From Candidatus Wildermuthbacteria bacterium (lineage in GTDB: Bacteria; Patescibacteriota; Minisyncoccia; Minisyncoccales; UBA10102), in NCBI GenBank assembly GCA_016186115.1, contig JACPMK010000003.1:26470-90469 (forward strand): DNA of 64,000 bases, written 5' to 3'. The position numbers were made by a program, and so were the translations under genes. The notes under the pieces are model-generated. The model did not search any database, was not told the origin of the DNA, and worked only from the letters and a program-made list of their open reading frames with translations. Positions 30,217-61,813 of this stretch are shown here, piece by piece (the stretch's first letter is position 1; the number at the start of each line of letters is the position of its first letter).

Positions 30217-31533
30217 ATGCGTGATATGAAAAGAATTTTAAAGAAGATCTTTCCTCCATTTATTTTGAGTTGGTACCATTTTGTATTGGCCTTTGTCGCG
30301 GCGGCGTGGTATCGGTTTCCCTCGAGAGATTTAACGGTGATTGGAGTTACGGGAACGAATGGGAAATCAACCACAGTCGATATGATCTCCCGAATTTTCG
30401 CAGAAGCAGGCATTGCGACTGCTTCTCTCTCTTCGATACGATTCCAAATCAACGAAAAGGAATGGCGCAATACGCTCAAGATGACAATGCCCGGCCCGTT
30501 TTTTGCGCAGAGATTTCTTCGCAAGGCAGTGAATGCCGGCTGCACGCATGCGGTGACGGAGGTAACTTCAGAAGGGATTCTTCAGTATCGCCACCGCTTT
30601 ATCAAATTTCATACGGCTGTGTTCACAAATTTGTCGCCCGAGCATATCGAACGGCATGGATCTTTCGAACATTATCGCCAAGCAAAAGGGGGACTATTTC
30701 AAGCCGCACAACAAGTGCATATTACGAATGGTGATGATAAAAATTCTGAATATTTTCTTCAATTTGCAGCCAGAGAAAAGTGGATATATGGTCTGAAAAA
30801 TTCGAAATCCGAAATTCGAAATCCGAAACAAATACCAAATACTAAATACCAAATATTAAATATTGAGAACATTCAAATAGAGCGAAACGGAGTAGAGTTT
30901 TTTGTAAAGGGTACTGAATTTCATCTCAAGCTCCTTGGGGAGTTTAACGCATATAACGCTTTGGCTGCAATTTGCGTTGGGCTTTCTCAAAATATTCCCT
31001 TAGAGACATGCAAAAACGCGCTCGAAAACATTGAAAAAGTGCCGGGCCGTATGGAACTGATTATCCAGAAGCCCTTTTGGGTATTTGTTGACTATGCTTT
31101 TACGCCCAATGCCCTAGAAAAAGTGTATCGGACCCTCAAAGAGTTGCAGCATATACCAAATACTAAATTGGTTTGCGTGCTCGGGGCTGCAGGCGGAGGG
31201 CGGGATAAATGGAAGCGGCCGGTATTGGGAAGGATTGCGGCATCGTATTGCGATAAAATTATTGTGACCAATGAAGATCCGTACGACGAAAATCCCACGG
31301 AAATCATTGAACAGGTGGCAGAAGGCGCCGGGGAAGAAGCAGAAAAAATCTTAGACCGCAGAGAAGCAATTGGAAAAGCATTGCACTTGGCGGGCTCGGG
31401 AGACGTCGTCGTGATAACGGGGAAGGGCAGCGAGGATTCTATTGATGTGGCCGGTGGCAAAAAAATTCCTTGGGATGATCGGGAAGTTGTTAGGGAGGAA
31501 TTTAGAAAAATCCATTCTCAAGAGACCGTATAG
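30217..31533 (+). CDS. Mur ligase family protein (MurE-like UDP-MurNAc-tripeptide synthetase) with N-terminal TM segment
   Basis: GVTGTNGKSTT P-loop, central and C-terminal Mur ligase motifs (GAAGGGRDKWKRP), hydrophobic N-terminus. Confidence 0.8.
   Translation: MRDMKRILKKIFPPFILSWYHFVLAFVAAAWYRFPSRDLTVIGVTGTNGKSTTVDMISRIFAEAGIATASLSSIRFQINEKEWRNTLKMTMPGPFFAQRFLRKAVNAGCTHAVTEVTSEGILQYRHRFIKFHTAVFTNLSPEHIERHGSFEHYRQAKGGLFQAAQQVHITNGDDKNSEYFLQFAAREKWIYGLKNSKSEIRNPKQIPNTKYQILNIENIQIERNGVEFFVKGTEFHLKLLGEFNAYNALAAICVGLSQNIPLETCKNALENIEKVPGRMELIIQKPFWVFVDYAFTPNALEKVYRTLKELQHIPNTKLVCVLGAAGGGRDKWKRPVLGRIAASYCDKIIVTNEDPYDENPTEIIEQVAEGAGEEAEKILDRREAIGKALHLAGSGDVVVITGKGSEDSIDVAGGKKIPWDDREVVREEFRKIHSQETV
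30798..30867 (+). repeat. Heptanucleotide-periodic tract (about 10 units) inside the MurE-like gene, in frame
   Basis: AAATTCG AAATCCG AAATTCG AAATCCG AAACAAA TACCAAA TACTAAA TACCAAA TATTAAA TATTGAG. Translated as NSKSEIRNPKQIPNTKYQILNIE. Confidence 0.85.
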
Positions 31534-31602
31534 ACGGAACAAGATTTTTGTGCTACCTTGAGTGATTGCGTGCTATGAGGACGCTTTCTATTTTATACAA
31601 GC

Positions 31603-31821
31603 ATGACAGGAAAGAATTTGCCCAAAAGCATACGGAAGTTTATTCGTCAAGAAAAAGCCAGAATTCGAAGGCAGATTTTTGATCCCAAAGAACAAGCCAA
31701 AGCAATCGAAGAGCTTTACCAGCGCATATATAATCAATACGGAAAATCAACAGTAAAGCAATCCAAAGAGATTCCCAATAAACCTAGGCTTGCCTTGAGC
31801 GAAGTTGAAGAGTCCCCATAG
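31603..31821 (+). CDS. Small basic protein (72 aa), uncertain
   Basis: Track ORF rich in K/R/Q. Its last 10 nt overlap the tRNA-Arg 5' end. No SD. Confidence 0.35.
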   Translation: MTGKNLPKSIRKFIRQEKARIRRQIFDPKEQAKAIEELYQRIYNQYGKSTVKQSKEIPNKPRLALSEVEESP

Positions 31822-31884
31822 TTTAACGGATAAAGCGTTGGCCTCCGAAGCCAAAGATTGGAGGTCCGATTCCTCCTGGGGACA
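31812..31884 (+). tRNA. tRNA-Arg (anticodon CCG)
   Basis: Hand-folded cloverleaf: acceptor GTCCCCA/TGGGGAC, D arm GTTT-AACGGATA-AAGC, anticodon arm TTGGC-CTCCGAA-GCCAA, T arm GGAGG-TCCGATT-CCTCC, discriminator A. 73 nt, no encoded CCA. Confidence 0.9.
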
Positions 31885-32053
31885 CGATTTGGAAGTGGAT
31901 AGCTCAAGTATTGACGAGATGACTGGAATCTGCAAAGATGTACTCTAATTCTTCCAGCACCTTGGCACATATCTTTTGAGCGCCTTTTTGTTCAGGAGAT
32001 TGTGTTCGTGGCTAAAAGGGCGCTCAAAACAGCAGCGGGAGAAAGGGAGCAAG

Positions 32054-32251
32054 ATGGACGCAAACGCAGATATAAATTATCCGATGATGGTATGCTGTAC
32101 ATGTGGCCATCGGGAATCTTCGCGGTTTCTTACTGGGACAAAGTGCCGCGTAGATGGAGGGGCAATGGCTGAAGAAAAACCGGGGCCGGTTATCATTCCC
32201 GCAAGGATCCGTCAAGCGGACGCGGTCCGGCAGTTAGCTAAGGCAGTGTAA
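32054..32251 (+). CDS. Small Cys-rich orphan protein (65 aa)
   Basis: ATG at 32054 after GGGAGAAAGGGAG. Contains VCCTCGH...TKCRVDGG. Followed by two hairpins including a terminator. Confidence 0.4.
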   Translation: MDANADINYPMMVCCTCGHRESSRFLTGTKCRVDGGAMAEEKPGPVIIPARIRQADAVRQLAKAV

Positions 32252-32337
32252 TTTCAATATTTAAGAAGGGAACCTCGGGATGAGATGAAGAGCGCCGCTC
32301 TTCCCGAGGTTTCCTCAGGGTAGCATTCAACATTGTG

Positions 32338-32369
32338 GCAGGAGCATAAAAACTCCTGCTTTTTCTTTT
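32338..32369 (+). terminator. Rho-independent terminator
   Basis: GCAGGAG-CATAAAAA-CTCCTGC followed by TTTTTCTTTT. Preceded by a 13-bp hairpin at 32268-32314. Confidence 0.75.
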
Positions 32370-32443
32370 CGCGAAAGAACGAATTGCATGATATACTGAA
32401 CATAAGCTTAAAGGTCGCACCTATTACATTTTTTATAAGAATC

Positions 32444-32752
32444 ATGCAGAAAAAACGTGTTTTAAAAAAGAAGATCGCAAAGAAACCCGTTGTAAAGAAA
32501 GTAAAAGAGCAGCCCATTGGCAAGGTGGCGCATTACTATGACAAGATCGGAGTAATCGCGCTGAAGCTTACAAATCCTGTGGCAGTGGGCAATACAATTA
32601 GGATTGAGGGAGGAGAAAAATCATTCACGCAAAAGATCGCATCCATGCAGATCGATCATGAGAAAATCAAAAAAGCGAAAAAAGGAGATGAGGTCGGGAT
32701 CAAGATTACTCAAAAGGCAAGAGAAGGGTATCGCGTGTTTCGACAAAAATGA
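32444..32752 (+). CDS. Small beta-barrel protein resembling translation-factor domain II (EF-Tu_D2-like)
   Basis: K-rich N-terminus, then IGKVAHYYDKIGVIALKL...VGNTIRIEGG...QKIASMQIDHEKIKKAKKGDEVGIK, recalled as a translation elongation factor-like family. ATG at 32444. Confidence 0.5.
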   Translation: MQKKRVLKKKIAKKPVVKKVKEQPIGKVAHYYDKIGVIALKLTNPVAVGNTIRIEGGEKSFTQKIASMQIDHEKIKKAKKGDEVGIKITQKAREGYRVFRQK

Positions 32753-33882
32753 ATAGTTTTATTTTGGCTTTGTCAACGCTCGTTGGGGCGATTGTGGGAG
32801 CGGGGATTTTTGGCATTCCCTATGCTATCGCAAAAAGCGGGGTTGTGCCGGGAATTTTTTACCTCGGTGTCCTTGCGGGGGCAGTGCTTATCCTCCACTT
32901 GCTTTTTGGAGAAGTATGCCTGCGCACCAAAGAAAAATACCGGCTTATTGGCTACGCAAGAAGATATCTTGGGAAATGGGGTGAGGCGGCAATGATTTTT
33001 GCGACTTTCGTTGGAACAGTCGGCACCCTGCTTGCCTACATTATTATTGGAGGGGACTTTCTCAAAATTGTTCTTTCTCCTCTTCTTTCTCTTTCTCCCA
33101 TTGCGGCAACCTTTCTTTTTTGGCTTGTCCTTTCCTTATTTGTTTTTCAGGGCATTCGTTTTATTGCAAAAACCGAATTTCTCATGAATATCGCGCTTTT
33201 TATCGTGATCGCGCTCGTATTTCTTTTTGCTATCCCCCATATTCGAATCGAAAACTTTTCTCTTGTGCATGGCGATTCTCTGTTTTTGCCCTACGGGATT
33301 ATCCTTTTTGCTTTGATAGGGTGGTCTGCGATCCCCGAAATTGCAGAACTTTTTAAAAAAGACGACGAGAAGAAAAAACTTCGCAATGTTCTTCGATTTG
33401 CATCTCTTATCACCTTTGCGCTCTATGCTCTTTTTGTGTTTTTCGTGATCGGAGTATCTGGAGCCAACACCTCGCCCGATGCTCTTGGCGGTCTCGTCCC
33501 TTTTCTGGGAGAAAATATCGTGATTATTGGAGCGATCATTGGATTGTTTATTATTGCTGACTCCTACATCATTTTCGGCGATTATCTCAAAAATTCACTG
33601 TACTATGATTACAAGATACCCCTGTTTTTTTCTGCTGCGATAACAATATCTCTCCCGCTTGCGCTTTTTATGCTGGGATTGCGCCAATTCTCTGAAGTGG
33701 TGGCAGTTGTTGGTTCATTTATAGGAGCCGTTGAGGGAGTAACGATTCTCTTGCTTTTTCAGAAGGCCAGGCACCACGGCGACCGCGAGCCCGAATACAT
33801 CGTCTCCATCCCACGAATTTTCCTCATTTTTCTTGGATTGATTCTTATCTCCGGCGCTCTCCTCGGATTTGTTTTCCCGTGA
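32749..33882 (+). CDS. Amino acid permease-like polytopic membrane protein
   Basis: About 11 TM helices. The N-terminal GAIVGAGIFGIPYAIAKSG motif resembles aromatic/amino-acid transporter families. Confidence 0.65.
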   Translation: MNSFILALSTLVGAIVGAGIFGIPYAIAKSGVVPGIFYLGVLAGAVLILHLLFGEVCLRTKEKYRLIGYARRYLGKWGEAAMIFATFVGTVGTLLAYIIIGGDFLKIVLSPLLSLSPIAATFLFWLVLSLFVFQGIRFIAKTEFLMNIALFIVIALVFLFAIPHIRIENFSLVHGDSLFLPYGIILFALIGWSAIPEIAELFKKDDEKKKLRNVLRFASLITFALYALFVFFVIGVSGANTSPDALGGLVPFLGENIVIIGAIIGLFIIADSYIIFGDYLKNSLYYDYKIPLFFSAAITISLPLALFMLGLRQFSEVVAVVGSFIGAVEGVTILLLFQKARHHGDREPEYIVSIPRIFLIFLGLILISGALLGFVFP

Positions 33883-33907
33883 TAGAATGAGGTGTGCGAG
33901 AAAAAAT

Positions 33908-34672: not shown

Positions 34673-34678
34673 GATGTT

Positions 34679-35926: not shown

Positions 35927-35940
35927 AATATATCCTTACT

Positions 35941-36810: not shown

Positions 36811-36869
36811 ACGTCCTTTTGTTCTTGTTGAGGTTGCAGGTTGTTTTGTCTGTGGTAGAATACATCTCA

Positions 36870-37976: not shown

Positions 37977-37991
37977 CCATAACTATCAATC

Positions 37992-38040
37992 AAAGGGGCC
38001 TCTGGAGGTTTTCCCCAGAGGCCCCTTTTACTTTCTTTTT
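37992..38040 (+). terminator. Strong rho-independent terminator
   Basis: 14-bp perfect stem AAAGGGGCCTCTGG / CCAGAGGCCCCTTT followed by TACTTTCTTTTT. Confidence 0.85.
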
Positions 38041-38049
38041 GGAAACCCC

Positions 38050-38077
38050 TTGACAAATATTTTGCAATTCATACAAT
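38050..38077 (+). promoter_or_regulatory. Sigma70-type promoter of the greA leader
   Basis: TTGACA (38050-55), 16-nt spacer, TACAAT (38072-77). Confidence 0.6.
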
Positions 38078-38083
38078 GATATA

Positions 38084-41991: not shown

Positions 41992-43737
41992 ATGCAAAAT
42001 CAAAAACTCGCCTCTATTCTCGCAACAATCTCTGCGTATCTGGCAATGGATGATGTTCCATTCAAGCCCCAAGCATATGAGCAGGCCGCAACTGCAGTGC
42101 AGGCGCTTTCAGAAGACGTGGAGGATATCTACAGAAAAGAGGGCTTGAAGGGCCTTGAACGGATTCCCGGCGTAGGAAAAAGTATTGCAGAGAAAATTGA
42201 AGAATATATAAAGACCGGTAGGATGCAATATTATGAAGAGTATCGCAAAAAAATCCCGGTGGATGTGGAAGAACTCATGGCAATTGAGGGAATAGGGCCA
42301 AAGACCGTGAAGACGCTGTACCAGCATTTAAAGATCAAAAATCTTGGGGATTTGGAACGGGCAGCAAAAGCAGGAAAAATCCGAAAGCTTCCTCATTTTG
42401 GTGAGAAAACTGAAAAGAATATTTTGCAAGGGATCGAATTCGTCAAAAACTCCAGCGGTAGAAAATTAATAGGATATATTTATCCTTATGTGGAAGAGAT
42501 TGTCGCGCTTTTAAAAAATTCCGGCCTTGTGGAGGAGGTAATTGCCGCAGGATCTTTTCGCCGCATGAAAGAAACCGTGGGAGATGTTGATATTTTGGTT
42601 ACAACCGGGCGCGATAACGAAAAAGAGATTGTGGAATATTTTCTTTCCCATGTCCCCTATGTAAAAATTTGGGGAAGGGGCTCGACCAAAGTTTCTATAC
42701 GCACCACGCAGGACTTTGATATAGACATACGCATTCTCCCCCAGAAGGCTTATGGGGCCGCTCTCCAATATTTTACTGGTTCAAAAGAGCATAATGTGAA
42801 AGTAAGAACGTATGCGTTGCAAAAGGGATTGAAGGTAAGCGAGTACGGGGTATTCCGGGGGAGAAAGCTTGTTGCGGGCAAGACCGAAGAAGAAGTATAC
42901 AAAGCCCTTGGATTGCCGTATATTGAGCCCGAATTACGCGAAGATCAGGGAGAATTTGAAGCAGCCCTCCGACTGGAACCCCCAAAGGTTATCCCATACA
43001 ATGCTCTGCGAGGAGATCTTCAGGTGCAAACAAATTGGACCGATGGCGCCCATTCTATCGAACAGATGGCAGAGGCAGCAACGAAACAGGGCTTGGAGTA
43101 TATCGCAATTACTGATCATACCAAGGATCTTGCCATGACCGGCGGCTGCGACGAAAAAAAGCTTTTGCGGCAGATGACAGAGATCGATGCAATAAATGTA
43201 AAATTAAAAATTAAAAATTTAACATTCAGAATTTTAAAGGGGGCGGAGGTGAATATAAGAAGAGATGGTACGCTTGATATTGCAGATGAGGTGTTGGCTA
43301 AACTTGATGTGGTAGGGGCTTCGGTGCATTCGTTGTTTAAAATGAATAAAAAAGACATGACCGAAAGGATTATCCGGGCCATGCGCAATCCTCATGTTGA
43401 TATTTTATTCCATCCCACCGGACGGATTATTCAAAAGCGTGATCCTTACGAATTAGATATGGACGAGATTATCAGGGTTGCAAAAGAGACGGGGACGATT
43501 CTGGAAGTAAATGCATATCCCGAACGTCTTGACCTTAAAGATACTGATGTTCGAAAGGCAGTGAATGCAGGGGTAAAGCTTGTGATTGACTCTGATGCCC
43601 ACCATGCCGATCATTTTCGATTTCTGCGCTTTGGGATTGCGCAGGCAAGGAGGGGCTGGGCAGAAGCAAAAGATGTAGTCAATACCCTTCCCTTAAAGCA
43701 GTTTCTTGTTTCATTAAAAGATCGAAAAAAGATCTGA
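41992..43737 (+). CDS. polX: Family X DNA polymerase with C-terminal PHP domain (PolX)
   Basis: HhH motifs (GVGKSIAEKI, GIGPKTVK), catalytic GSFRRMKETVGDVDILV, PHP motifs (ITDHT, HPTGR, DSDAHH). Confidence 0.9.
   Translation: MQNQKLASILATISAYLAMDDVPFKPQAYEQAATAVQALSEDVEDIYRKEGLKGLERIPGVGKSIAEKIEEYIKTGRMQYYEEYRKKIPVDVEELMAIEGIGPKTVKTLYQHLKIKNLGDLERAAKAGKIRKLPHFGEKTEKNILQGIEFVKNSSGRKLIGYIYPYVEEIVALLKNSGLVEEVIAAGSFRRMKETVGDVDILVTTGRDNEKEIVEYFLSHVPYVKIWGRGSTKVSIRTTQDFDIDIRILPQKAYGAALQYFTGSKEHNVKVRTYALQKGLKVSEYGVFRGRKLVAGKTEEEVYKALGLPYIEPELREDQGEFEAALRLEPPKVIPYNALRGDLQVQTNWTDGAHSIEQMAEAATKQGLEYIAITDHTKDLAMTGGCDEKKLLRQMTEIDAINVKLKIKNLTFRILKGAEVNIRRDGTLDIADEVLAKLDVVGASVHSLFKMNKKDMTERIIRAMRNPHVDILFHPTGRIIQKRDPYELDMDEIIRVAKETGTILEVNAYPERLDLKDTDVRKAVNAGVKLVIDSDAHHADHFRFLRFGIAQARRGWAEAKDVVNTLPLKQFLVSLKDRKKI
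43201..43235 (+). repeat. Heptanucleotide-periodic tract inside polX
   Basis: AAATTAA AAATTAA AAATTTA ACATTCA GAATTTT, translated KLKIKNLTFRIL. Confidence 0.6.
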
Positions 43738-47861: not shown

Positions 47862-47942
47862 AAAGCGTTTCTCTGAATTTCGATAGTATCGAACACTGAA
47901 AAGAACTTGGAAAGAATCAAGAATGAAAACCAAGAATGAAAA

Positions 47943-48401
47943 ATGAAAATAAAAAGTACATCAATATTATGCGATAGGATAAAATTGATGTACAACGCTT
48001 TTTATCGGTTGCGCAAAGAGGGCTGCATTTATATCGAACGGCGCAACAATCAAATTTTTATTTCTCTCACCGAAAAAGGAAGAAGGAAAGCCGGACGGTT
48101 TTAGATTGATAGCTTGAAAATTAAAAAGCCAAAGCAATGGGATAGAAAATGGCGCTTGATTATGTTTGATATTGCACAGCTCCATCTTTTCAAGAGAAAC
48201 GCGCTCCGAGGAATTCTAAAACGACTGCAATTTTATCAACTTCAGAAAAGTATTTGGATTCATCCTTTTGATTGCCAGGATGAGTTCGATCTTCTGAAGG
48301 ATTTTTTCGGTTTGACCGTTAGGGAGATGAGATTTGTGGTTGCCAATGATATTGGGGACGATCAATCTTTGCGTACAATGTTTAAGTTGCAAACTGTTTG
48401 A
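47943..48401 (+). pseudogene. PaaX-like small regulator (wHTH + PaaX_C/Cas2-like fold) interrupted by an in-frame TAG
   Basis: ATG at 47943 or 47988 gives ...MYNAFYRLRKEGCIYIERRNNQIFISLTEKGRRKAGRF, then TAG (48102-04), then IDSLKIKKPKQWDRKWRLIMFDIAQ... in the same frame. The track only calls 48114..48401. Confidence 0.5.
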
Positions 48402-48433
48402 AAAGTCGGCTCAAAAATGTTAAATTGAGTGGC

Positions 48434-51400
48434 ATGGAAGTTAATTTTCCGAAGCTGGAGGAAAGAATATTAAAGCATTGGAAGGCGATTAGGGCATTTG
48501 AAAAATCGGTACAAATGCGAAGGGGATCGCCTCGTTTTGTTTTTTACGAAGGTCCTCCCACAGCCAATGGCGCCCCGGGCATCCATCACGTGCTTTCCCG
48601 TGCCTTTAAAGATATTATTCTGCGCTACAAAACCATGGCTGGATTTTACGTTGAGCGAAAAGCTGGCTGGGATACGCATGGTCTCCCCGTGGAATTGCAA
48701 ATTGAAAAAAAACTTGGATTGAAGTCAAAAAAGGATATCGAGAAATACGGCATCGCGAAATTCAATGCAGAGTGCAAAAAATCTGTCTGGGAATACAAGA
48801 AAGAATGGGAAAGTTTAACAGAGCGCATCGGATTTTGGCTCGACATGGAGCATCCCTACATCACTTATGAAACTCCATATATCGAAACTCTGTGGTCAAT
48901 TATTAAACAGTACTGGCAAAAGGGATTGCTCTATAAAGATTACAAGGTTGTGCCTTATTGTCCGCGCTGCGGCACTTCGCTTTCTTCTCATGAGCTAGCC
49001 CAAGGGTATAAAACCGTAAAAGAACCCTCGGTATATGTAAAATTCAAAATTCGAGCGGAAGATTTTCTTAAACTACCGACTACTAACCATAAACTACAAA
49101 CTGTTTATCTTTTGGCGTGGACTACAACTCCATGGACCCTGCCTTCGAATGTGGCATTGGCCGTCCATCCGGATATCTCTTATGTGGTTGCCAAACTCAA
49201 TAATGAGCATTACATCGTTGCACAAGAACGGGCAAAGCATGTGCTCGGCGAGACCTATGAAATTGCAGAAACGCTAAGGGGGAGCGATTTGGTGGGGGTT
49301 TCTTATGTCCCCCTATATCAATTTGAGCAGAGTGAAAAAGGGAAAAAAGTGTGGGAAGTAGTTCCTGCGGATTTTGTATCAACCAAAGAAGGCACCGGCA
49401 TCGTGCATACCGCAGTGGCCTATGGAGTTGATGATTTTGAGCTGGGCAAAAAACAGAATCTTGCAATGTTTCATTTCGTAACAGAAGAAGGAAAATTTCA
49501 TGACAAGGTAAAACCATTTGCCGGACTTTTTGTAAAAGATGCCGATCCCTTGATTATGGAAGATTTGAAAAAGCGCAGTACTCTTTTCAAAGAAGAGCTC
49601 TATGAGCATGAGTATCCTTTTTGCTGGAGATGCGACACGCCCCTGTTGTATTACGCGAAAGAGAGTTGGTTTTTGAATATGCAAAGGGTAAAAGATCAGT
49701 TGCTGGCGAACAATGAAAAAATTCATTGGATTCCTGCGTATATTAAGGAAGGGAGATTTGGCGAATGGCTTAAAGAGGTACGCGACTGGGCGTTTTCGAG
49801 AGAAAGATATTGGGGTACGCCCTTGCCTATCTGGCAATGCAAAGGATGCGTCCATCAAGAAACAATCGGCTCTCTCGATGATTTGAGGAAACAAAAATTC
49901 TCAACAAATACCTATTATATATTGCGTCATGGTGACTCCGAACGCCAGAAAACAAACGTCATGTCTTCTTGGCCAGAGAAAAAGCCATTACCCCTTACCT
50001 CAAGAGGAGTACGTGAAATTCAGGCGAGAGCAAAACAATTAAAAAAGAAAAAAATTGATTTCATTTTTTCTTCAGATATACTTCGAACGCAGCAAACCGC
50101 AGAAATCATAGGCAAAGAATTGGGCATTGCGCCAATTTTTGATAAGCGTTTGCGAGAGTGGGATATGGGCATATTGAATGGCAAGCATATCAAAGAATAC
50201 GGAAAAATGTTCGGCAGAAAAGGCGAGACCGCTTTGGAGCATTACCTGCGTAGATTTGAGGAGCCCGTACCAAAAGGAGAAAGCTGGAAAGATGTGCAGA
50301 AGCGATTGTATGGTTTGCTGCAAGAGCTTGAGAAAAAGTATGACGGGAAAACAGTTCTTGTTATCGGCCACGAGTTGCCGCTTACGCTTTTGGAGGGTCT
50401 TGCGAAGGGATTGTCGAGAGAAGAAGTTATCAAATTCCGGGAGAAAAAAGCATTGCATACCGCAGAATTGCGCAAGTTGTCAGTAACCCTGCTTCCTTAT
50501 AACGATGATATGGAAGTGGATCTTCATCGCCCCCACATCGATGCCGTTACTTTTTTTTGTTCTCAATGCGGCAAGCAAATGGAACGAGTAAAAGATGTGG
50601 TGGATGTATGGTTTGATTCTGGGGCAATGCCCTTTGCGCAAAATCCGAAATTCGAAATCCGAAATCCGAAATTAGCGCCTCCGGCGCTGTATCCGGCGGA
50701 TTATATTGTGGAGGGAATTGATCAAACACGGGGATGGTTTTATACCTTGCTTGCAATCGCCACGTTATTGGGTTTTGGCACGCCTTTTCGAAACGCAATT
50801 TCCTTGGGTCATATTCTGGATGAAAAGGGGGAAAAGATGTCCAAGACCAAAGGCAACGTGGTAAGCCCTTGGGATATGATTTCAAAGTATGGAGCAGATG
50901 CAGTGCGATGGTATTTCTATACCATGAATCATCCCGGAGACCCAAAATTATTTTCTGAAAGGGATATTCAGCAGACGCTTCGAAAATTCCTTTTTACGCT
51001 TTGGAATTCTTTTGTTTTTTATCAAATGTATAAACCTTCTTCCAATGCGAAGATTCCTGTCAAAATTCAAACCAGCCATATTCTTGATCGCTGGATTCTT
51101 TCGCGACTGCAATTGCTTATTGAGGAGATGACGAAACGCATCGATTCCTATGACGTCACAGGGGCGGCAAGAGCGCTGGAAGGTTTTGCGATCGATGATT
51201 TTTCACTTTGGTATATCCGAAGATCGCGTGTAAGATTTCAGAATCCAAGTTCTCCAAGAGAAAAACAAGAGGCGCTTACAACATTGCAGTATACTCTGGC
51301 GGAAGTAGCGAAGCTGGCAGCTCCTTTCGTGCCCATGATTAGCGAACATATCTATCAGGAACTTCAGCAGAAACGCAGCTCTTCTATGCAAAGTGTTCAC

Positions 51401-51949
51401 TGGAAAGATTGGCCGAAGTCCCAGCGGCAGTTTCGTAATCTGCCCCTTGAAGAAGAAATGAACAAGGCGCGAGAGGTCGTTGCCAAGGCGCTTGCCGAAC
51501 GCGCAAAAGCAGGGATCAAGGTGCGCCAGCCCCTCGCTTTGCTGAAAATCCGAAATCCGAAATCCGAAGTTCCAAACGAATTACTCAACGTAATTAAGGA
51601 TGAGGTGAATGTGAAAGAAGTTGTGTTTGATAAAAATCTCAAGGCAGAGGTTGAGTTGGATACGCGCCTCACTCCAGCGCTGAAAGAAGAAGGGATGCTG
51701 CGGGATATTCTGCGTTCCATACAGGATATGCGAAAAACAGCGGGGTACAAGCCACGGCATTCCATTGTGCTTAGTTTTGCCGGAGATGTTTTTCTTGGGC
51801 AGCTCTTGTTAAAGAACAGGATGGTGTTGAAGCGGGGCGTGGGAATAAAAAAGTTTATCCAGGGAGAAAAACCAAAGCATGTATTTGATATCGAACGCGA
51901 ATTTGAAATGGAAGGCAAGAGAATTTGGCTCGGCATAAAAAAAGCATAG
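48434..51949 (+). CDS. ileS: Isoleucyl-tRNA synthetase (type 2-like) with an inserted histidine-phosphatase domain
   Basis: PPTANGAPGIHHV (HIGH region), GWDTHGLP, WTTTPWTLPSN, CP1 editing region, KMSKTKGN, DQTRGWFY. ATG at 48434 (MEVNFPKLEE). Confidence 0.95.
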   Translation: MEVNFPKLEERILKHWKAIRAFEKSVQMRRGSPRFVFYEGPPTANGAPGIHHVLSRAFKDIILRYKTMAGFYVERKAGWDTHGLPVELQIEKKLGLKSKKDIEKYGIAKFNAECKKSVWEYKKEWESLTERIGFWLDMEHPYITYETPYIETLWSIIKQYWQKGLLYKDYKVVPYCPRCGTSLSSHELAQGYKTVKEPSVYVKFKIRAEDFLKLPTTNHKLQTVYLLAWTTTPWTLPSNVALAVHPDISYVVAKLNNEHYIVAQERAKHVLGETYEIAETLRGSDLVGVSYVPLYQFEQSEKGKKVWEVVPADFVSTKEGTGIVHTAVAYGVDDFELGKKQNLAMFHFVTEEGKFHDKVKPFAGLFVKDADPLIMEDLKKRSTLFKEELYEHEYPFCWRCDTPLLYYAKESWFLNMQRVKDQLLANNEKIHWIPAYIKEGRFGEWLKEVRDWAFSRERYWGTPLPIWQCKGCVHQETIGSLDDLRKQKFSTNTYYILRHGDSERQKTNVMSSWPEKKPLPLTSRGVREIQARAKQLKKKKIDFIFSSDILRTQQTAEIIGKELGIAPIFDKRLREWDMGILNGKHIKEYGKMFGRKGETALEHYLRRFEEPVPKGESWKDVQKRLYGLLQELEKKYDGKTVLVIGHELPLTLLEGLAKGLSREEVIKFREKKALHTAELRKLSVTLLPYNDDMEVDLHRPHIDAVTFFCSQCGKQMERVKDVVDVWFDSGAMPFAQNPKFEIRNPKLAPPALYPADYIVEGIDQTRGWFYTLLAIATLLGFGTPFRNAISLGHILDEKGEKMSKTKGNVVSPWDMISKYGADAVRWYFYTMNHPGDPKLFSERDIQQTLRKFLFTLWNSFVFYQMYKPSSNAKIPVKIQTSHILDRWILSRLQLLIEEMTKRIDSYDVTGAARALEGFAIDDFSLWYIRRSRVRFQNPSSPREKQEALTTLQYTLAEVAKLAAPFVPMISEHIYQELQQKRSSSMQSVHWKDWPKSQRQFRNLPLEEEMNKAREVVAKALAERAKAGIKVRQPLALLKIRNPKSEVPNELLNVIKDEVNVKEVVFDKNLKAEVELDTRLTPALKEEGMLRDILRSIQDMRKTAGYKPRHSIVLSFAGDVFLGQLLLKNRMVLKRGVGIKKFIQGEKPKHVFDIEREFEMEGKRIWLGIKKA
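49069..49103 (+). repeat. Heptanucleotide-periodic tract in ileS (TAAACTA type)
   Basis: TAAACTA CCGACTA CTAACCA TAAACTA CAAACTG, translated LKLPTTNHKLQT just before WTTTPWTLP. Shares the 14-mer ATAAACTACAAACT with 61785-61798. Confidence 0.75.
49900..50510 (+). other. Histidine phosphatase (phosphoglycerate-mutase-like, branch 1) domain embedded in IleRS
   Basis: YYILRHGDSERQ (RHG motif), SSDILRTQQTAEII, DKRLREWDMGILNG, PKGESWKDVQKRL, VLVIGHELPL. Inserted between ...ETIGSLDDLRKQKF and DLHRPHID.... Confidence 0.8.
50641..50675 (+). repeat. Heptanucleotide tandem repeat in ileS (AAATYCG x5)
   Basis: AAATCCG AAATTCG AAATCCG AAATCCG AAATTAG, translated NPKFEIRNPKLA. Confidence 0.85.
51546..51573 (+). 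repeat. Heptanucleotide tandem repeat in ileS (AAATCCG x3 + 1 degenerate)
   Basis: AAATCCG AAATCCG AAATCCG AAGTTCC, translated KIRNPKSEVP. Confidence 0.85.
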
Positions 51950-54370: not shown

Positions 54371-54436
54371 AGGAATAAACGCGGGGCGCAGCAAGTCCCA
54401 CTTTTATTTTTGGGAAAATCCAGTAGAATAGAGCCA

Positions 54437-58117: not shown

Positions 58118-58788
58118 TGGGCACTCTTTTTATTGTCGCCACACCAATCGGCAATCTCGAAGATATTACTCATCGGGCGCTTCGCGTATTGCGCCAAGCA
58201 GATTTTATCTTATGCGAAGATACAAGGGTTACCAAGAAATTGCTCGATCATTACGGAATTGCAACTCCAACGTTGAGCTATCATCAACACAGCACTCCAG
58301 AGAAGATGAGCTATGTTTTTGGTCTTTTATCTACTGGAAAGAATATCGCATTGGTTTCTGATTCCGGAACTCCCGGAATTGCAGACCCCGGCAATGAACT
58401 CATCGAATTTTTGCTCCAGAAAAATCCCGGAATAAACATAGCTCCTATTCCTGGCCCTTCTGCGGTCGCCGCAATCGCAAGCATTTCTGGGTTTCCAACG
58501 AATTCCTTTTTATTCTTGGGATATCCGCCGAGTAAAAAAGGCAGAAAGAAATTTTTTGAGAAAGTTGCAGAGTCGCAATGCCCAGTGATTTTCTACGAGT
58601 CGCCCTACCGGATTATAAAAACTCTGCAGCAGTTGCAGGAGTTAAGCCCAGAGGTATATGCGGTAGTGGGCAGGGAACTTACCAAACAATTCGAAACAAT
58701 CTCCCGCGGCCCTATTGACCAAGTGCTCCAAATAATGCAGAAAGATAAGGTAAAAGGAGAATTTGTGGTAATTGTATACAACCAATGA
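58117..58788 (+). CDS. rsmI: 16S rRNA (cytidine1402-2'-O)-methyltransferase
   Basis: LFIVATPIGNLEDIT, CEDTR, DSGTPGIADPG, and a tetrapyrrole-methylase fold pattern. Confidence 0.9.
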   Translation: MGTLFIVATPIGNLEDITHRALRVLRQADFILCEDTRVTKKLLDHYGIATPTLSYHQHSTPEKMSYVFGLLSTGKNIALVSDSGTPGIADPGNELIEFLLQKNPGINIAPIPGPSAVAAIASISGFPTNSFLFLGYPPSKKGRKKFFEKVAESQCPVIFYESPYRIIKTLQQLQELSPEVYAVVGRELTKQFETISRGPIDQVLQIMQKDKVKGEFVVIVYNQ

Positions 58789-60278
58789 ACAAAAAATTCT
58801 ATATCACAACTGCAATTCCCTATGTGAATGCCCGCCCGCACATCGGGCATGCTTTGGAATTTATTCAGGCCGATGTCATTGCGCGCTACCATCGTCTGAA
58901 GGGTGAGGAGGTTTTGCTTTTGTCTGGAAGCGATGAGAATGCGCTTAAAAATGTTCAAGCCGCCCAGAGCGCCGGAGTCCCTGTGCAGCAATTTATTGAT
59001 GAAAACGCCGTGCTTTTTGTCGAGTTGGCCAATGCGCTTGGCGTGCAATTCGACGTATTTCAAAAGGGAAGCAGCAAAGAACACCATCTCTCCAGTCAGA
59101 AACTGTGGCAACTTTGCGCCGAAAATGGGGATATCTACAAAAAATCCTACGAAGGTTTGTACTGCACGGGATGCGAAGCATTTTATACTCCAGATGAGCT
59201 TGATGCGAATCAGGAATGCCTTGAGCATCCCGGCCGAAAACTCGAGAGCGTCTCCGAAGAAAATTATTTTTTCAAACTTTCACGATATCAGGACAAAATC
59301 ATTAGTGTATTGGAAAGCGATGAATTGGAAATTGTTCCCGCGACCCGAAAAAATGAAATGCTCGCTTTTTTGAAACAGACACTGCAAGATATTAGCATTT
59401 CGCGCACCAATGAACGCGCCAAAAATTGGGGCGTGCCAGTTCCGGCCGATGATTCTCAAAGAATGTATGTTTGGTTCGATGCCCTCAATATGTATCAGTC
59501 GGGAGTTGGATTTGGATTAGATGAACAAAAGCATAACAAGTGGTGGCCGGCAGATATTCATGTGATTGGCAAGGGGATTATTCGTTTTCACGCGGTGTAC
59601 TGGCCGGCATTTCTTTTGTCGGCTGGGTTGCCTTTGCCCAAGAAAATCTTTGTTCATGGCTATATCACTTCAAGCGGACAAAAAATGTCAAAGACACTGG
59701 GAAATGTGGTTGATCCTTTTCCGCTTGTCGAAAAATATGGAAGTGGTGCAGTACGTTACTTTTTCTTGCGCGAAATTCCGCCGACAGAAGACGGCGATTT
59801 TTCCTATGAAAAATTCGAAGAGAGGTATAATTCTGACCTTGCGAGTGGTTTGGGAAATCTTGTCGCGAGAGTACTCGCGCTTGTAGGAAAAATAAATCCG
59901 AAATCCTTTGACAAGCTCAGAATCCCGAGCGAAGTCGAGGGACAAATTCAAAGTCCAAAACTGCGGGAAATTATAAATGCAGCGAGAGAAAAGGTGGATA
60001 CGGCGTTGGAAAAGTTTCAGTTTCAGGATGCGTTGATTGCCATTTGGGATGTGATTCATTTTTGCGACAGATATATTGAGGAGAAAAAACCGTGGTCTTT
60101 CGACTTCGCTCAAGATAAACCCGATCAAAAAGAAGTAATCGACGATTTATTGCTAGCAATTTTAGCAATCGGCACGCTTCTCAAGCCATTTCTCCCCGCG
60201 ACTTCAGAGAAAATAGCGAATCAATTGCAACATGGAAAAGGCGATCCTCTCTTCCCGCGTCTTGACAGAAATGTATGA
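58785..60278 (+). CDS. metG: Methionyl-tRNA synthetase (short form)
   Basis: PYVNARPHIGH (HIGH), KMSKTLGN, zinc knuckle CTGCEAF, C-terminal anticodon-binding helices. Confidence 0.95.
   Translation: MNKKFYITTAIPYVNARPHIGHALEFIQADVIARYHRLKGEEVLLLSGSDENALKNVQAAQSAGVPVQQFIDENAVLFVELANALGVQFDVFQKGSSKEHHLSSQKLWQLCAENGDIYKKSYEGLYCTGCEAFYTPDELDANQECLEHPGRKLESVSEENYFFKLSRYQDKIISVLESDELEIVPATRKNEMLAFLKQTLQDISISRTNERAKNWGVPVPADDSQRMYVWFDALNMYQSGVGFGLDEQKHNKWWPADIHVIGKGIIRFHAVYWPAFLLSAGLPLPKKIFVHGYITSSGQKMSKTLGNVVDPFPLVEKYGSGAVRYFFLREIPPTEDGDFSYEKFEERYNSDLASGLGNLVARVLALVGKINPKSFDKLRIPSEVEGQIQSPKLREIINAAREKVDTALEKFQFQDALIAIWDVIHFCDRYIEEKKPWSFDFAQDKPDQKEVIDDLLLAILAIGTLLKPFLPATSEKIANQLQHGKGDPLFPRLDRNV
59894..59941 (+). 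repeat. In-frame composite insertion in metG: two AAATCCN heptamers plus an imperfect palindrome
   Basis: AAATCCG AAATCCT, then CCTTTGAC (59905-12) / GTCGAGGG (59934-41) pairing with two G-U, and an inner GCTC/GAGC. Translated NPKSFDKLRIPSEVEG. Confidence 0.55.
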
Positions 60279-60289
60279 AAAAGTATACT
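60262..60289 (+). promoter_or_regulatory. Sigma70-type promoter overlapping the metG 3' end (cassette A)
   Basis: TTGACA (60262-67), 16-nt spacer, TATACT (60284-89). Confidence 0.6.
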
Positions 60290-60298
60290 ACACTAATC

Positions 60299-60379
60299 AT
60301 GAGCAGCCAGATCAGAAAAGGATTTTATTTCTTCTTTTTTACCAGCCCCGGCGAAGAGCGAGGTCGTTATTCTTGTTAA
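60299..60379 (+). CDS. Candidate near-leaderless leader peptide with a Phe/Tyr run (26 aa)
   Basis: MSSQIRKGFYFFFFTSPGEERGRYSC. The ATG is about 3-4 nt from the predicted TSS. The F/Y codons 60323-60340 are followed directly by ACCAGCCCC, which can pair with the terminator 3' arm. Confidence 0.35.
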   Translation: MSSQIRKGFYFFFFTSPGEERGRYSC

Positions 60380-60405
60380 TCGAAAACATCTAACCAAGAA
60401 ATCAC

Positions 60406-60441
60406 CCAGCCCTTCGTCAAACGAGGGGCTGGTTTTCTTTT
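60406..60441 (+). terminator. Rho-independent terminator / attenuator in the leader of the 117-aa ORF
   Basis: CCAGCCCTTCG-TCAAA-CGAGGGGCTGG (11 bp, one G-U) followed by TTTTCTTTT. Confidence 0.7.
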
Positions 60442-60542
60442 CGCCCTGCGGCGAAAAGACGATGTTTTCTGATGAGAGCTCCAACACATTCGGGTTTCTC
60501 ACCAGAGAAGATCTTAACTATCTCTGGTTAAGGAGGGAAACA

Positions 60543-60896
60543 ATGGCCGAACATCGTATGGGTATAATACAGGGTAGCACTGGAACGCTCAAAGAGGTTC
60601 TTGGAATGCTTGGGGTGTCGATAACAAAATTCGCATTCCAAGGGCATAATTCGTCGGACTCGTGTGGACAGCAAGGGGTGCATCCTCCTCACGTACTGGA
60701 GGAGTATAGACATTATTGCATTGGGAAAGCTGGCTGTGTGGGAGAGGATGTGCTTATCGTAATTGCCGAAGAACGGCAACTGTACCCAGCACGTGCAAAA
60801 GGGATTTACTTCCTCCTTCCAAGAAATGCATTCCCCTCTTTCCGGGATCCGCTTATGCAAGTTGGCGTAGGGCAAGGTCCTGGATATACCGGCTAA
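60543..60896 (+). CDS. Orphan protein, 117 aa, SD-led (P3)
   Basis: AAGGAGG (60530-36), 6-nt spacer, ATG at 60543. Cys/His-rich middle (SCGQQGVHPPH...YRHYCIGKAGCVGED). No family recognised. Confidence 0.55.
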   Translation: MAEHRMGIIQGSTGTLKEVLGMLGVSITKFAFQGHNSSDSCGQQGVHPPHVLEEYRHYCIGKAGCVGEDVLIVIAEERQLYPARAKGIYFLLPRNAFPSFRDPLMQVGVGQGPGYTG

Positions 60897-60917
60897 ATCT
60901 GGAAAGTACGGCCTATA

Positions 60918-60953
60918 GGGCGGAGCTTTACCGAGCTCCGCCCGTTTTCTTTT
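60918..60953 (+). terminator. Rho-independent terminator
   Basis: GGGCGGAGCT-TTACCG-AGCTCCGCCC (10 bp) followed by GTTTTCTTTT. Confidence 0.8.
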
Positions 60954-60998
60954 GACAAGCAGTTGACAACCCTGTTTTCAATTTGCTATGGTTATAAT
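60952..60998 (+). promoter_or_regulatory. Promoter of cassette B
   Basis: Consensus TATAAT at 60993-98. Two TTGACA copies (60952-57, 60963-68) are spaced too far away for a canonical -35, so the -35 is ambiguous. Confidence 0.45.
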
Positions 60999-61008
60999 AC
61001 TTGAGCTT

Positions 61009-61095
61009 ATGAAGAAAATCTCCCAAACAATGTTGCTTTTGTTGGTCTTGGTAACTAATCCTACTCGGTTGGGAGATTTTGATCGCAGAAGTTAA
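61009..61095 (+). CDS. Candidate near-leaderless leader peptide with a Leu/Val run (28 aa)
   Basis: MKKISQTMLLLLVLVTNPTRLGDFDRRS. The TTG CTT TTG TTG GTC TTG GTA codons are in phase. The ORF spans attenuator segments 1 and 2. Confidence 0.5.
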   Translation: MKKISQTMLLLLVLVTNPTRLGDFDRRS

Positions 61096-61121
61096 AAATA
61101 CAAAATTCCTTGCGACAACGT

Positions 61122-61153
61122 AACCTCCCAACCGCGGGAGGTTTCTTCTTTTG
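61122..61153 (+). terminator. Rho-independent terminator (segments 3:4 of the cassette B attenuator)
   Basis: AACCTCCC-AACCGC-GGGAGGTT followed by TCTTCTTTTGTCTT. Confidence 0.75.
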
Positions 61154-61327
61154 TCTTGAGGAGTAAGGAAAAGTTTATTCCTTATTCCCCAGGCCAGAAG
61201 AGTATGTCTGGTTTGGAGCAGCAAGTTCACCTACCATAAGCGTGAGCGTGCTGTAGGAAGATAATCCTGCGATCGGGTAACATCTGTGAGCAGGATAATC
61301 CTCTGAATTGCTAAGGAGGAGAACGAG

Positions 61328-61387
61328 GTGGTTGAGAAGACCCCCCACTTTCTTGGCTGCTTCGTTCTCTTCCCGCGCAATGTTTAG
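61328..61387 (+). CDS. Possible 19-aa micro-ORF, SD-led
   Basis: AAGGAGG (61313-19), 8-nt spacer, GTG at 61328. Encodes MVEKTPHFLGCFVLFPRNV. Confidence 0.25.
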   Translation: MVEKTPHFLGCFVLFPRNV

Positions 61388-61410
61388 CACATTGTATGAA
61401 GGAGGGTGAG

Positions 61411-61584
61411 ATGTACTTTGGTTCGCACATTTGCTGTCTGGATGCCTTTTTCATAGGGGAGGACGGCAGTGGGGCGGTGAAAAAACTTAAAGAGGCGCCA
61501 CCGCCGCCACCAGAAAACGAAAAGGAGAAACTTCTTCCTGCTGACGAAGACCTGCAAGGTCAGCAGGACGAGAAATCATCCTAG
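61411..61584 (+). CDS. Orphan protein, 57 aa, SD-led (P4)
   Basis: AAGGAGGG (61399-406), then ATG at 61411. Encodes MYFGSHICCLDAFFIGEDGSG...APPPPPENEKEK... with an acidic tail. Confidence 0.45.
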   Translation: MYFGSHICCLDAFFIGEDGSGAVKKLKEAPPPPPENEKEKLLPADEDLQGQQDEKSS

Positions 61585-61594
61585 CTCTCCCATG

Positions 61595-61647
61595 CGGCTC
61601 CTTTTGTTTGCGCATCAACGCGCAGCAGGAGGAGCCGTCCATTTTTT
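61595..61647 (+). terminator. Compound hairpin terminator
   Basis: CGGCTCCT (61595-602) / AGGAGCCG (61630-37) with inner TGCGC/GCGCA, followed by TCCATTTTTT. Confidence 0.6.
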
Positions 61648-61649
61648 AC

Positions 61650-61678
61650 TTGACATTATCCCTTGAGCTTACTAGTAT
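61650..61678 (+). promoter_or_regulatory. Sigma70-type promoter of cassette E
   Basis: TTGACA (61650-55), 17-nt spacer, TAGTAT (61673-78). Confidence 0.55.
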
Positions 61679-61695
61679 AAAATATACTCTTCAGC

Positions 61696-61788
61696 ATGGA
61701 CATTATTTTACAGATCAGACAAGCGATTATTGGCATTATTACCATTATTAGCCCCACCAAACGAGGGAGTTTCTTGCAGCAGCTATAA
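61696..61788 (+). CDS. Candidate leader peptide with an Ile run (30 aa)
   Basis: MDIILQIRQAIIGIITIISPTKRGSFLQQL. Four ATTATT pairs plus one ATC are all in frame with the ATG. Confidence 0.45.
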   Translation: MDIILQIRQAIIGIITIISPTKRGSFLQQL

Positions 61789-61813
61789 ACTACAAACTAC
61801 TAACTAAAATCTG
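61786..61813 (+). repeat. Heptanucleotide-periodic tract (TAAACTA type) between micro-ORF and terminator
   Basis: TAAACTA CAAACTA CTAACTA AAATCTG. Confidence 0.7.

Follow-up and report, generated by a model that had tools for sequence, protein, structure and literature searches.

Short tandem arrays of 7-nt units lie in frame inside essential genes of a Candidatus Wildermuthbacteria bacterium (Parcubacteria, within the candidate phyla radiation [CPR]), and arrays of the same kind occupy the same places in these genes across the Parcubacteria. The arrays, here called tracts, were studied in a window of 64,000 nt (assembly GCA_016186115.1, contig JACPMK010000003.1, positions 26,470 to 90,469), and coordinates below are those of the window. 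The tracts belong to a known kind of sequence, the heptanucleotide simple-sequence repeats (SSRs). They probably originated by a slippage-type process, were filtered by selection, and were then inherited vertically with slow remodelling. They depart from the heptamer repeats described so far in being mostly coding and in frame, in reading the A-rich strand as sense, in the heterogeneity of their units, and in occupying orthologous hot spots across a deep radiation.

Period-7 tracts in the window

Arrays in the window were called by Tandem Repeats Finder (TRF), and host genes were assigned via Pfam (Table 1). Nine tract loci lie within 31 kb, five of them with the unit AAATYCG, and at least five unit types are present (AAATYCG, CAAATAC, AAAATTA, TAAACTA, and AAGAATC). 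The first 30 kb of the window contains no period-7 tract. A first-pass annotation, made from the DNA letters without database searches, had reported most of these tracts, and TRF found arrays at every place it named except metG, where two units are indeed present but are not significant alone. Its list missed the intergenic tract at 47912-47949 and the proto-tract at 49040-49052. It had described the ileS tract at 49069 as strictly periodic; the tract exists, but it is degenerate. The 10 units it counted in a murE-like gene proved to be two abutting arrays with 10 units in all, and a database protein identical to this Mur ligase, from a Candidatus Wildermuthbacteria metagenome-assembled genome (MAG), is called MurE by NCBI. 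The tract at 61786 had been placed in a noncoding leader. It is noncoding, but no leader contains it; the stop codon of a 30-aa open reading frame (ORF; 61697-61788) marks its start, and it runs to an intrinsic-terminator hairpin (61815-61838). The 14-mer ATAAACTACAAACT is shared by the 49069 and 61786 tracts, as the annotation had stated.

Table 1. Heptanucleotide tracts of the window, their arrays, and the ORFs or sites that hold them
Locus	Tract	Strand	Units	Residues and peptide	TRF array	Host ORF or site
Mur ligase, compound tract	30798-30867	+	(AAATYCG)x4.4 then (CAAATAC-type)x4.7; 10 units	aa 194-217, KNSKSEIRNPKQIPNTKYQILNIE	30798-30828, AAATYCG, 4.4 copies; abutting 30829-30862, CAAATAC type, 4.7 copies	30217-31533
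PolX	43194-43235	+	(AAAATTA)x2.9 plus degenerate units	aa 404-415, KLKIKNLTFRIL	43200-43219, 100% matches	41992-43737
ArgRS	47541-47598	+	(AAATTCG)x3.9 then degenerate AAATNNN units	aa 478-497, RNSKFEIRNKSQILNSKFSK	47541-47567, CGAAATT, 3.9 copies, 100% matches	46110-47861
Intergenic, degenerate	47912-47949	+	AAGAATC/AATGAAA		period 7, 70% matches (also periods 13 and 20)	argS-ileS spacer, 51 nt 3' of argS stop
IleRS hot spot A	49040-49103	+	two-unit proto-tract AAATTCAAAATTC (49040-49052) plus degenerate TAAACTA/CAAACTA tract (49069-49103)	aa ~215-236	49070-49102, 4.7 copies, weak, 65% matches	48398-51949
IleRS hot spot C	50641-50675	+	(AAATYCG)x4.6	aa 748-760, QNPKFEIRNPKLA	50641-50672, 92% matches	48398-51949
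IleRS hot spot G	51546-51573	+	(AAATCCG)x3.3	aa 1050-1059, KIRNPKSEVP	51546-51568, 100% matches	48398-51949; Anticodon_1/DUF5915 junction
MetRS, proto-tract	59894-59907	+	two units, AAATCCG AAATCCT	aa 370-375, INPKSF	no call	58785-60278
Non-coding	61783-61813	+	TAAACTA CAAACTA CTAACTA AAATCTG		61783-61806, 3.4 copies, 88% matches	30-aa ORF stop to terminator hairpin

Dinucleotide-preserving shuffles served as controls, which the first-pass annotation had suggested for a genome-wide check. Exact period-7 runs number 4 in the window versus 0.12 in the shuffles, and the window has 6 tracts with 17 or more of 21 matches versus 0 in 30 shuffles. Among periods 4 to 21, nothing is enriched in the window apart from 7 and its double, 14. 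Tandem AAATYCG pairs (pattern AAATYCGAAATYC, at most one mismatch) gave 16 matches versus 2.0 expected, all on the + strand, and lone AAATYCG heptamers were not enriched in the window (60 versus 47 expected). Therefore, the tandem arrangement is unusual and not the word itself. Two 50-kb stretches of Escherichia coli K-12 (100 kb) contained zero period-7 tracts.

Three SRA runs of the window strain yielded Logan assemblies with 100% identity over the four tracts that they fully cover (49069, 51546, 59894, and 61786), and the 50641 tract is likewise identical at a contig end. Because these independent assemblies agree, and because 52 of 80 independent MAGs (see below) also bear tracts, an assembly artefact, which had been named as a risk, is ruled out.

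Assembly breaks do occur at tracts. Logan contigs of the window strain begin at or beside them (L081 at window position 47625, L083 at 50636, and L082 at 50725). In the related genomes, an N gap in the L017 scaffold (5400-5408) lies at IleRS hot spot D, and a 13-unit heptamer array in L041 (23072-23162) adjoins an N gap. Shared repeat k-mers or population heterogeneity could cause these breaks.

Tract hot spots in Parcubacteria

Searching the IleRS protein against one genome per GTDB species gave a comparison set of 80 loci, all from Parcubacteria/Paceibacteria-type MAGs with IleRS identities of 44 to 67% and together covering 1.40 Mb around ileS. This sequence contains 133 period-7 tracts, 75 tracts of period 14, and 0 to 8 for each other period. 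Tracts are found in 52 of the 80 loci at a density of 0.85 per 10 kb. In a pooled strict set of 125 tracts, 99 (79%) are genic, i.e., wholly within ORFs of at least 100 aa, 15 extend across an ORF end, and the other 11 are intergenic. The coding strand is the A-rich one in 88 of the 99 genic tracts. Tract lengths vary continuously from 14 to 91 nt, and Lys makes up 22% of tract peptides versus 10% of IleRS overall. The hosts are mostly nucleic acid enzymes (IleRS, ArgRS, MetRS, PolX, Pol I, TGT, SmpB, RNase J, TatD, GlyRS, and UvrB) and also include a Mur ligase and a solute-binding protein. Nine of the 26 noncoding or edge tracts, including the window's 61783 tract, are positioned between 45 nt before and 60 nt after a stop codon.

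The units of the comparison loci are diverse, with AAATTCG, AAAAATT, AAATCCG, and AAAAGTT the commonest and an overall composition of 48% A. Units are shared more often within loci than between them (19.6% versus 12.4%, permutation P = 0.01). This elevation is weak, and a strongly genome-specific unit was rejected. AAATYCG, which the first-pass annotation had noted in four genes, is not a universally special unit either: (AAATYCG)x3 occurs in 36 IMG/VR contigs, and composition-matched control heptamers are at least as frequent there in triplet form (at least 80, at least 25, and at least 11 contigs). These 36 contigs are mostly 56 to 68% GC and rich in other heptamers. Some viral-classed contigs among them (L084 to L119, e.g., L110, L097, and L100; 56 to 68% GC) carry as many as 23 tracts within 14 kb, their units including GGAGTTA, GCGCATA, CAGCACT, and GGGGATT. 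Because these contigs hold dense arrays, heptamer-rich genomes exist well outside the Parcubacteria.

An alignment of the 80 IleRS proteins places 67 tracts in about seven clusters (window residues 214-236, 347-359, 747-765, 879-895, 986-999, 1005-1019, and 1046-1062), and the three IleRS tracts of the window fall in three of them. Hot spot G (1046-1062) is occupied in 21 to 26 of the 80 species with many different units, and hot spot A carries tracts in six species. ArgRS has four clusters, and the window's site (475-497) holds 11 tracts with differing units from 10 genomes, the window included. PolX has one or two clusters, and the window's site (401-416) is also tract bearing in two other loci (L002 and L027). 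At the site of the Mur ligase tract, orthologues have 7-aa-periodic peptides, e.g., IKNQKSKIKN, LRNPKSEIRNPKQIQNSKSQIPN, and IRNQESGIRNQES; the site is a segment of variable length that is missing from about 25 orthologues. Thus, the tracts are not peculiar to the window genome; the same hot spots carry them across Parcubacteria whose IleRS proteins are 41 to 67% identical. At every hot spot, a tract is absent from many orthologues, and the peptides at one site diverge between species (KIRNPKSE, KFSISNFQFS, LKIQDTRYK, and ELRIKNQKL). One genome (L001) has, in place of a heptamer tract at IleRS hot spot C (near window residue 757), a 24-nt in-frame tandem repeat coding for (SAQDKPFD)n, so this site accepts other repeat types.

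Tract density is 1.96 per 10 kb in IleRS, 2.57 in ArgRS, and 1.39 in PolX; it is 0.13 in all other ORFs, 0.11 in the 154 other ORFs of at least 450 aa, and 2.26 in noncoding DNA plus ORF edges. Comparing these three genes with the remaining ORFs gives a binomial P of ~3e-30. A regional effect, such as proximity to the origin (dnaA, 8581-9939), was rejected, as genes within 10 kb of ileS in the 80 genomes have only 0.13 tract per 10 kb. Because the comparison genes are the immediate neighbors of ileS, the concentration is a property of the genes and not of the region.

In the window, all genic tracts lie in open frames and encode peptides of the K[NS]SK[SF]EIRNPK type with 7-aa periods, which bears out the reading-frame claim of the first-pass annotation. 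Its placement of the tracts in variable loops also agrees with the alignments: hot spots fall in poorly conserved columns (conservation of 0.40 versus 0.61 in IleRS), and several lie at domain borders. The further claim that the tracts are lineage-specific insertions applies to some sites only. The tract at IleRS residues 224-236 is an insertion of 7 to 12 aa relative to the IleRS structures 1ILE and 8C8W, and the PolX tract adds 4 aa relative to Thermus thermophilus PolX (3AU2). IleRS residues 748-760, however, align with HYPFEHEEVF of T. thermophilus IleRS (1ILE) with 2 extra residues and no large gap, residues 1050-1059 are equal in length to the matching segment of 8C8W, and the ArgRS tract forms a loop after the conserved SILRKA helix that is about as long as in Pyrococcus horikoshii ArgRS (2ZUE). 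In the IleRS alignment, 688 of 896 tract residues fall in core columns, i.e., those present in most sequences. IleRS proteins with a tract are 2 to 7 aa longer at hot spots B, C, D, and E+F, whereas G shows no such difference. At hot spot C, the tract follows an intact HWPF motif in two genomes (L003 and L009) and replaces the motif in the window and in L011. Since some tracts are insertions and others fill segments of roughly normal length, tracts both add to and overwrite tolerant segments. In an AlphaFold2 (AF2) model of the Mur ligase (predicted local distance difference test score [pLDDT] of 91.6), residues 194-209 are modelled as a loop containing a short helix (pLDDT of ~81 to 84) and residues 210-217 begin a strand (E210-222).

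Probable origin and persistence of the tracts

Of 193 four-fold degenerate third positions inside tracts, 176 (91%) have the base of the unit consensus, compared to 92% at codon positions 1 and 2 and an expectation of 24% from codon usage; the test is partly circular, because periodicity was the criterion by which tracts were detected and this bias inflates the agreement. Because four-fold sites follow the unit as strictly as other sites, periodicity is a feature of the nucleotide level and not a by-product of a conserved peptide. No coding function is needed to make tracts, as is clear from their density in noncoding DNA and at ORF edges. At hot spot C, the window, L003, L009, and L011 all have AAATCCG arrays, even though the four-fold sites of their ileS genes are saturated (0.29 to 0.38 identity). 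Unit sharing between tracts at the same site rises from 21% of pairs below 50% IleRS identity to 55% above 70% identity, whereas pairs from different sites stay flat at 9 to 21%. This rise with relatedness fits vertical inheritance with a slow turnover of units.

Selection against stop codons appears to have left its mark as well. A consensus unit that gives a stop when repeated in tandem is found in 31 of the 99 genic tracts, compared to 53% of composition-matched random heptamers. Departures from the consensus are most frequent where a stop would arise (37% versus 8% elsewhere), and in the PolX tract of the window (AAAATTA AAAATTA AAAATTT) the change falls exactly at a would-be in-frame TAA. 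These results support selection for stop avoidance in the tracts; like the four-fold-site result, they are partly conditioned on the choice of tracts and ORFs and are supportive rather than decisive.

The explanation that we favor is as follows. A nucleotide-level repeat process would create the tracts and keep their units homogeneous, the most likely process being replication or repair slippage that favors 7-nt units, a mechanism already put forward for other prokaryotes. About 90% of a Parcubacteria genome is coding, and therefore selection would decide which tracts survive. To persist in a gene, a tract would need a net length change that is a multiple of 3, which in practice means steps of three units (21 nt, or 7 aa). 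Its unit would have to be free of stops in any sense frame, or the would-be stop would have to be mutated away. The A-rich strand would be the sense strand and would therefore encode a hydrophilic peptide (Lys, Asn, Ser, Gln, and the like), situated in a sequence-tolerant surface loop or an interdomain linker. A tract once seated would be inherited vertically and remodelled slowly by unit turnover, small expansions, and overwriting of adjacent loop sequence, with no fast switching. We infer that slippage generates the tracts, that selection on hydrophilicity produces the strand bias, and that tracts persist at the hot spots rather than arising there repeatedly.

Several observations weigh against this explanation. 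There is no tract length difference among the three independent assemblies of the window strain, the tracts are identical in ten Nealsonbacteria contigs from different samples that differ at 42 single-nucleotide polymorphism columns in 11.4 kb, and there are no indels at the tract site in Mur ligase clusters of at least 90% identity. Ongoing slippage is thus inferred, not observed. Orthologous sites do vary between species in both tract length and unit; the protein database contains no relatives of the window species between 68% and 100% identity. For each hot spot, the tract-bearing species come from all parts of the sampled diversity, cluster only weakly at the local level, and include pairs with as little as 41% IleRS identity; such scatter requires that tracts either persisted for a very long time or arose repeatedly at the same places. 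The density in IleRS, ArgRS, and PolX is about 15 times that of the 154 other ORFs of at least 450 aa and equals that of noncoding DNA, a concentration that would not be expected from purely neutral accumulation in permissive loops. Finally, a frame-preserving tract is hard to build in 7-nt steps, and its birth inside a gene is left unaccounted for.

Outside the tracts, the sole indel among the Nealsonbacteria contigs is a G6/G5 homopolymer difference at about position 19196 of L238 (gene-relative alignment column 9196) versus L239 to L247; it splits a signal-peptide-peptidase-like gene in one sample.

A heptamer-specific process might actively maintain 7-nt arrays at sites in class I aminoacyl-tRNA synthetases (aaRSs), PolX, and a few other genes over very deep time. 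Fully periodic synonymous sites, the ~15-fold gene-specific and nonregional enrichment, and hot spots common to lineages with 41 to 45% identical IleRS proteins allow such a reading, to which we give a small chance. The process could be a homogenizing repair or replication mechanism or nucleotide-level selection for a cis element bound one heptamer per subunit. The arrays would then be a conserved functional feature, with a role in, e.g., control of the synthesis or cotranslational folding of these enzymes, and not tolerated junk. Protein-level adaptation would give the heptamer a different role, as raw material for Lys/Asn/Ser-rich flexible surface loops that are kept, and perhaps recruited, for nonspecific binding of tRNA or DNA. 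The predominance of nucleic acid enzymes among the hosts, the ~15-fold enrichment in IleRS, ArgRS, and PolX, the high Lys content, the recurrence of hot spots across deep lineages, and the ordered part of the Mur ligase tract in the AF2 model are all in its favor. Selection on the protein would not be expected to make synonymous sites as periodic as nonsynonymous ones, however, and the peptides at one site differ widely between species, noncoding DNA holds tracts at equal density, a Mur ligase and a solute-binding protein are among the hosts, and genes around ileS are biased towards information processing in any case. Adaptive loops of this kind are therefore unlikely in our view.

If the arrays were instead selected as DNA or RNA, they might bind a single-strand-binding, cold-shock-type, or other protein or act as translational pause sites at domain borders, thereby regulating expression or folding of the class I aaRSs and PolX. 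A cis-acting signal would explain why the periodicity extends to synonymous sites, why the enrichment is strong and specific to genes and sites rather than regional, and why several hot spots lie at domain borders; CspB is reported, in a citation within PMC4679880, to bind heptamer direct repeats with one protein per heptamer. We nevertheless consider it improbable, as units are heterogeneous within a genome (the low within-locus sharing and the unit types of the window given above) and differ between species at one site, unlike the single genome-wide unit of Beggiatoa, Geobacter, or Xanthomonas, and many orthologues do without a tract. Folds of four genic tracts also gave no RNA structure (z of +0.39 to -0.68 versus shuffles). 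The absence of structure bears equally on selfish mobile mini-insertions that would spread by placing in-frame copies at tolerant positions of essential genes, in the manner of Rickettsia palindromic elements (RPEs) or the small dispersed repeats of cyanobacteria. The recurrence of AAATYCG at five loci in window genes, the 14-mer shared between two tracts, the 4 to 12 aa that are extra relative to solved homologues at some sites, and the independent assembly contigs that begin at or beside tracts could be read in this way. The RPE likeness suggested in the first-pass annotation nevertheless did not hold up, since there is no conserved element and there are no conserved termini, shared flanks, target duplications, or palindromes; single units are not dispersed, and length is continuously variable. 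Furthermore, many tracts replace rather than add sequence, unit similarity at orthologous sites tracks phylogeny, the ten Nealsonbacteria contigs show no presence/absence differences, and no transposase or reverse transcriptase was noticed nearby. Mobility is accordingly very improbable. Contingency loci, in which slippage by single units switches genes or varies a protein, do include heptamers, e.g., the 7-bp repeats of Haemophilus influenzae HMW1 (PMC8262952) and an evolved heptanucleotide hypermutable locus in Pseudomonas (bioRxiv 2024.05.01.592015). The tracts, however, are short (3 to 5 units), lie in the middle of genes and not near the 5' end or in promoters, and sit in single-copy essential housekeeping genes rather than in surface, antigen, or restriction-modification genes. 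No length variant was seen among strains or within 90% clusters, and an apparent frameshift at the IleRS tract of L017 turned out to be a run of N at hot spot D, with no frameshifted allele found. Phase variation can hardly be credited for these reasons. The lack of conserved ends, of RNA structure, and of length variation between strains together argue that the tracts are neither RPE-like elements nor phase-variation loci, and slippage followed by selection and vertical inheritance remains our preferred explanation.

Relation to known heptamer repeats and neighboring features

The canonical units of the short tandemly repeated repetitive (STRR) sequences of cyanobacteria are CCCCAGT, TTGGTCA, and CAACAGT. 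None of the three is found among the window units or the 40 commonest units of the related loci. The likeness to STRR heptamers that the first-pass annotation drew is supported at the level of tandem 7-nt arrays. RPEs are elements of ~100 to 150 bp with a family consensus that are palindromic, are inserted as units, and form in-frame extra segments at surface-exposed, tolerant sites of essential proteins. The Parcubacteria tracts resemble them in giving an in-frame extra peptide at a tolerant site (7 to 12 aa at IleRS hot spot A and 4 aa in PolX), but they have no consensus beyond the 7-nt unit, no palindrome, no fixed length, and no defined ends; a consensus of at least ~100 bp with defined ends was not found among tracts of 14 to 91 nt with unrelated flanks.

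The tracts share several features of heptanucleotide SSRs. Seven arrays of the window have 2.9 to 4.7 copies, as against the three or more tandem copies of the SSR class, and metG has 2. Period 7 is in excess in the window and in the 80 loci and is absent from the E. coli control, and related units recur at many loci (nine in 31 kb). The main departure from described cases is location: the STRR, GGGNATC, and TAACTGA repeats are predominantly intergenic, and 99 of the 125 tracts here are inside ORFs. According to the summaries in PMC4679880 and PMC4692102, heptanucleotides are the most abundant SSRs of 5 to 11 nt in many prokaryotes, with a rationale based on polymerase contacts and slippage (Mrazek, Guo, and Shah 2007). 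As these long SSRs (LSSR5-11) are portrayed there, they likewise have head-to-tail 7-nt units, a prominent period 7 among periods 5 to 11, many loci per genome, slippage as the proposed origin, and no specific function known. They differ in being reported mainly from large, often GC-rich genomes of nonpathogens, with nontriplet units disfavored in coding regions, whereas the genome studied here is tiny (~45% GC), and the Parcubacteria tracts are 79% intragenic and in frame and occupy orthologous hot spots in particular genes. Lin and Kussell (2012) do not mention heptamers.

Individual heptamer families can be compared in the same way. Both STRRs and the GGGNATC/GGGGAYT repeats of Xanthomonas and Nostoc (PMC4692102) are genome-wide tandem heptamers, some of them at most 50 nt 3' of stop codons on the sense strand. 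The GGGNATC/GGGGAYT repeats are G rich and G-quadruplex forming, with one or a few fixed units per genome in 2 to 26 copies, and are intergenic and underrepresented in coding sequence (PMC4692102). The Parcubacteria tracts, in contrast, have diverse A-rich units, are mostly coding, and have 3 to 5 units (10 at most in the window). Geobacter metallireducens has elements of four tandem GGGACCG heptamers within and between genes (PMC2700814). These are also multicopy arrays of about four heptamers, and IleRS here holds three arrays. The Geobacter unit is single, GC rich, genome wide, and read as a regulatory RNA, with no cross-species analysis (PMC2700814), whereas the units described here are heterogeneous and their hot spots are conserved across a whole bacterial class. 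In marine Beggiatoaceae, the heptamer TAACTGA is directly repeated in 2 to 6 copies at many loci, and 7-aa periods and stops in one orientation were discussed for these repeats (PMC4679880). They differ in having one fixed unit that is almost entirely intergenic, just 5' of start codons, and this location was explained by the stops that the unit contains in the forward orientation. In the literature searched, whose coverage is incomplete, we found no paper describing heptanucleotide repeats in Parcubacteria or other CPR bacteria or in aaRS genes, in line with the impression of the first-pass annotation that such repeats in aaRS genes had not been described.

If our explanation is correct, a microsatellite with a nontriplet unit serves essential enzymes as a regular and long-lived source of loop residues, adding or rewriting seven of them per step, in a radiation that ranks among the largest in bacteria. 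The tracts would be a concrete and testable case of mutation bias shaping proteins in streamlined genomes. They would also sharpen the old question of why 7 nt is favored among the longer bacterial SSRs, here in a lineage whose DNA polymerases and repair proteins are few enough to test. The tracts also matter when CPR genomes are assembled and annotated, because contigs break at them and because KSEIRNPK-like peptides in unrelated proteins can cause spurious similarity. The ~15-fold concentration in IleRS, ArgRS, and PolX deserves attention above all and leaves a narrow opening for a functional or targeted process.

Some further features of the tracts and their surroundings were recorded. Intergenic tracts are often adjacent inverted pairs with one unit on opposite strands, which could form long hairpins (L027, 17652-17696/17734-17764; L022, 6783-6828/6834-6863; L065, 4491-4528/4532-4576; and L109, 6180-6215/6219-6266). 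A full-length PolX with a PHP domain is encoded near ileS in 22 of 81 loci, and PolX is itself a tract host; a link between this slippage-prone repair polymerase and the production of repeats is pure speculation.

IleRS of the window has an inserted histidine phosphatase domain (PF00300) of ~175 aa at residues 507-681 (~nt 49916-50440), between the halves of the catalytic core. It contains the RHG motif in YILRHGDSE and a second His in VIGHELP, and solved IleRS structures are without it. In each of the 80 Parcubacteria ileS genes retrieved, this place is taken up by 155 to 180 aa, and RH[GA] is kept in 66.

Elsewhere in the window, dnaA and dnaN lie at 8.6 to 11.2 kb, at the cumulative GC-skew minimum, and an Rfam scan of the window returned only a transfer-messenger RNA and one tRNA. 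The 2.3 kb between metG and tatD (60280-62640) has no long ORF and no Rfam match, and it contains several promoter-like sites paired with strong terminator hairpins. This arrangement suggests a string of small transcription units, one example being the hydrophobic 30-aa ORF that ends at the 61783 tract, which has a promoter-like site upstream (61650-61678) and whose terminator hairpin has a fold z of -2.97.

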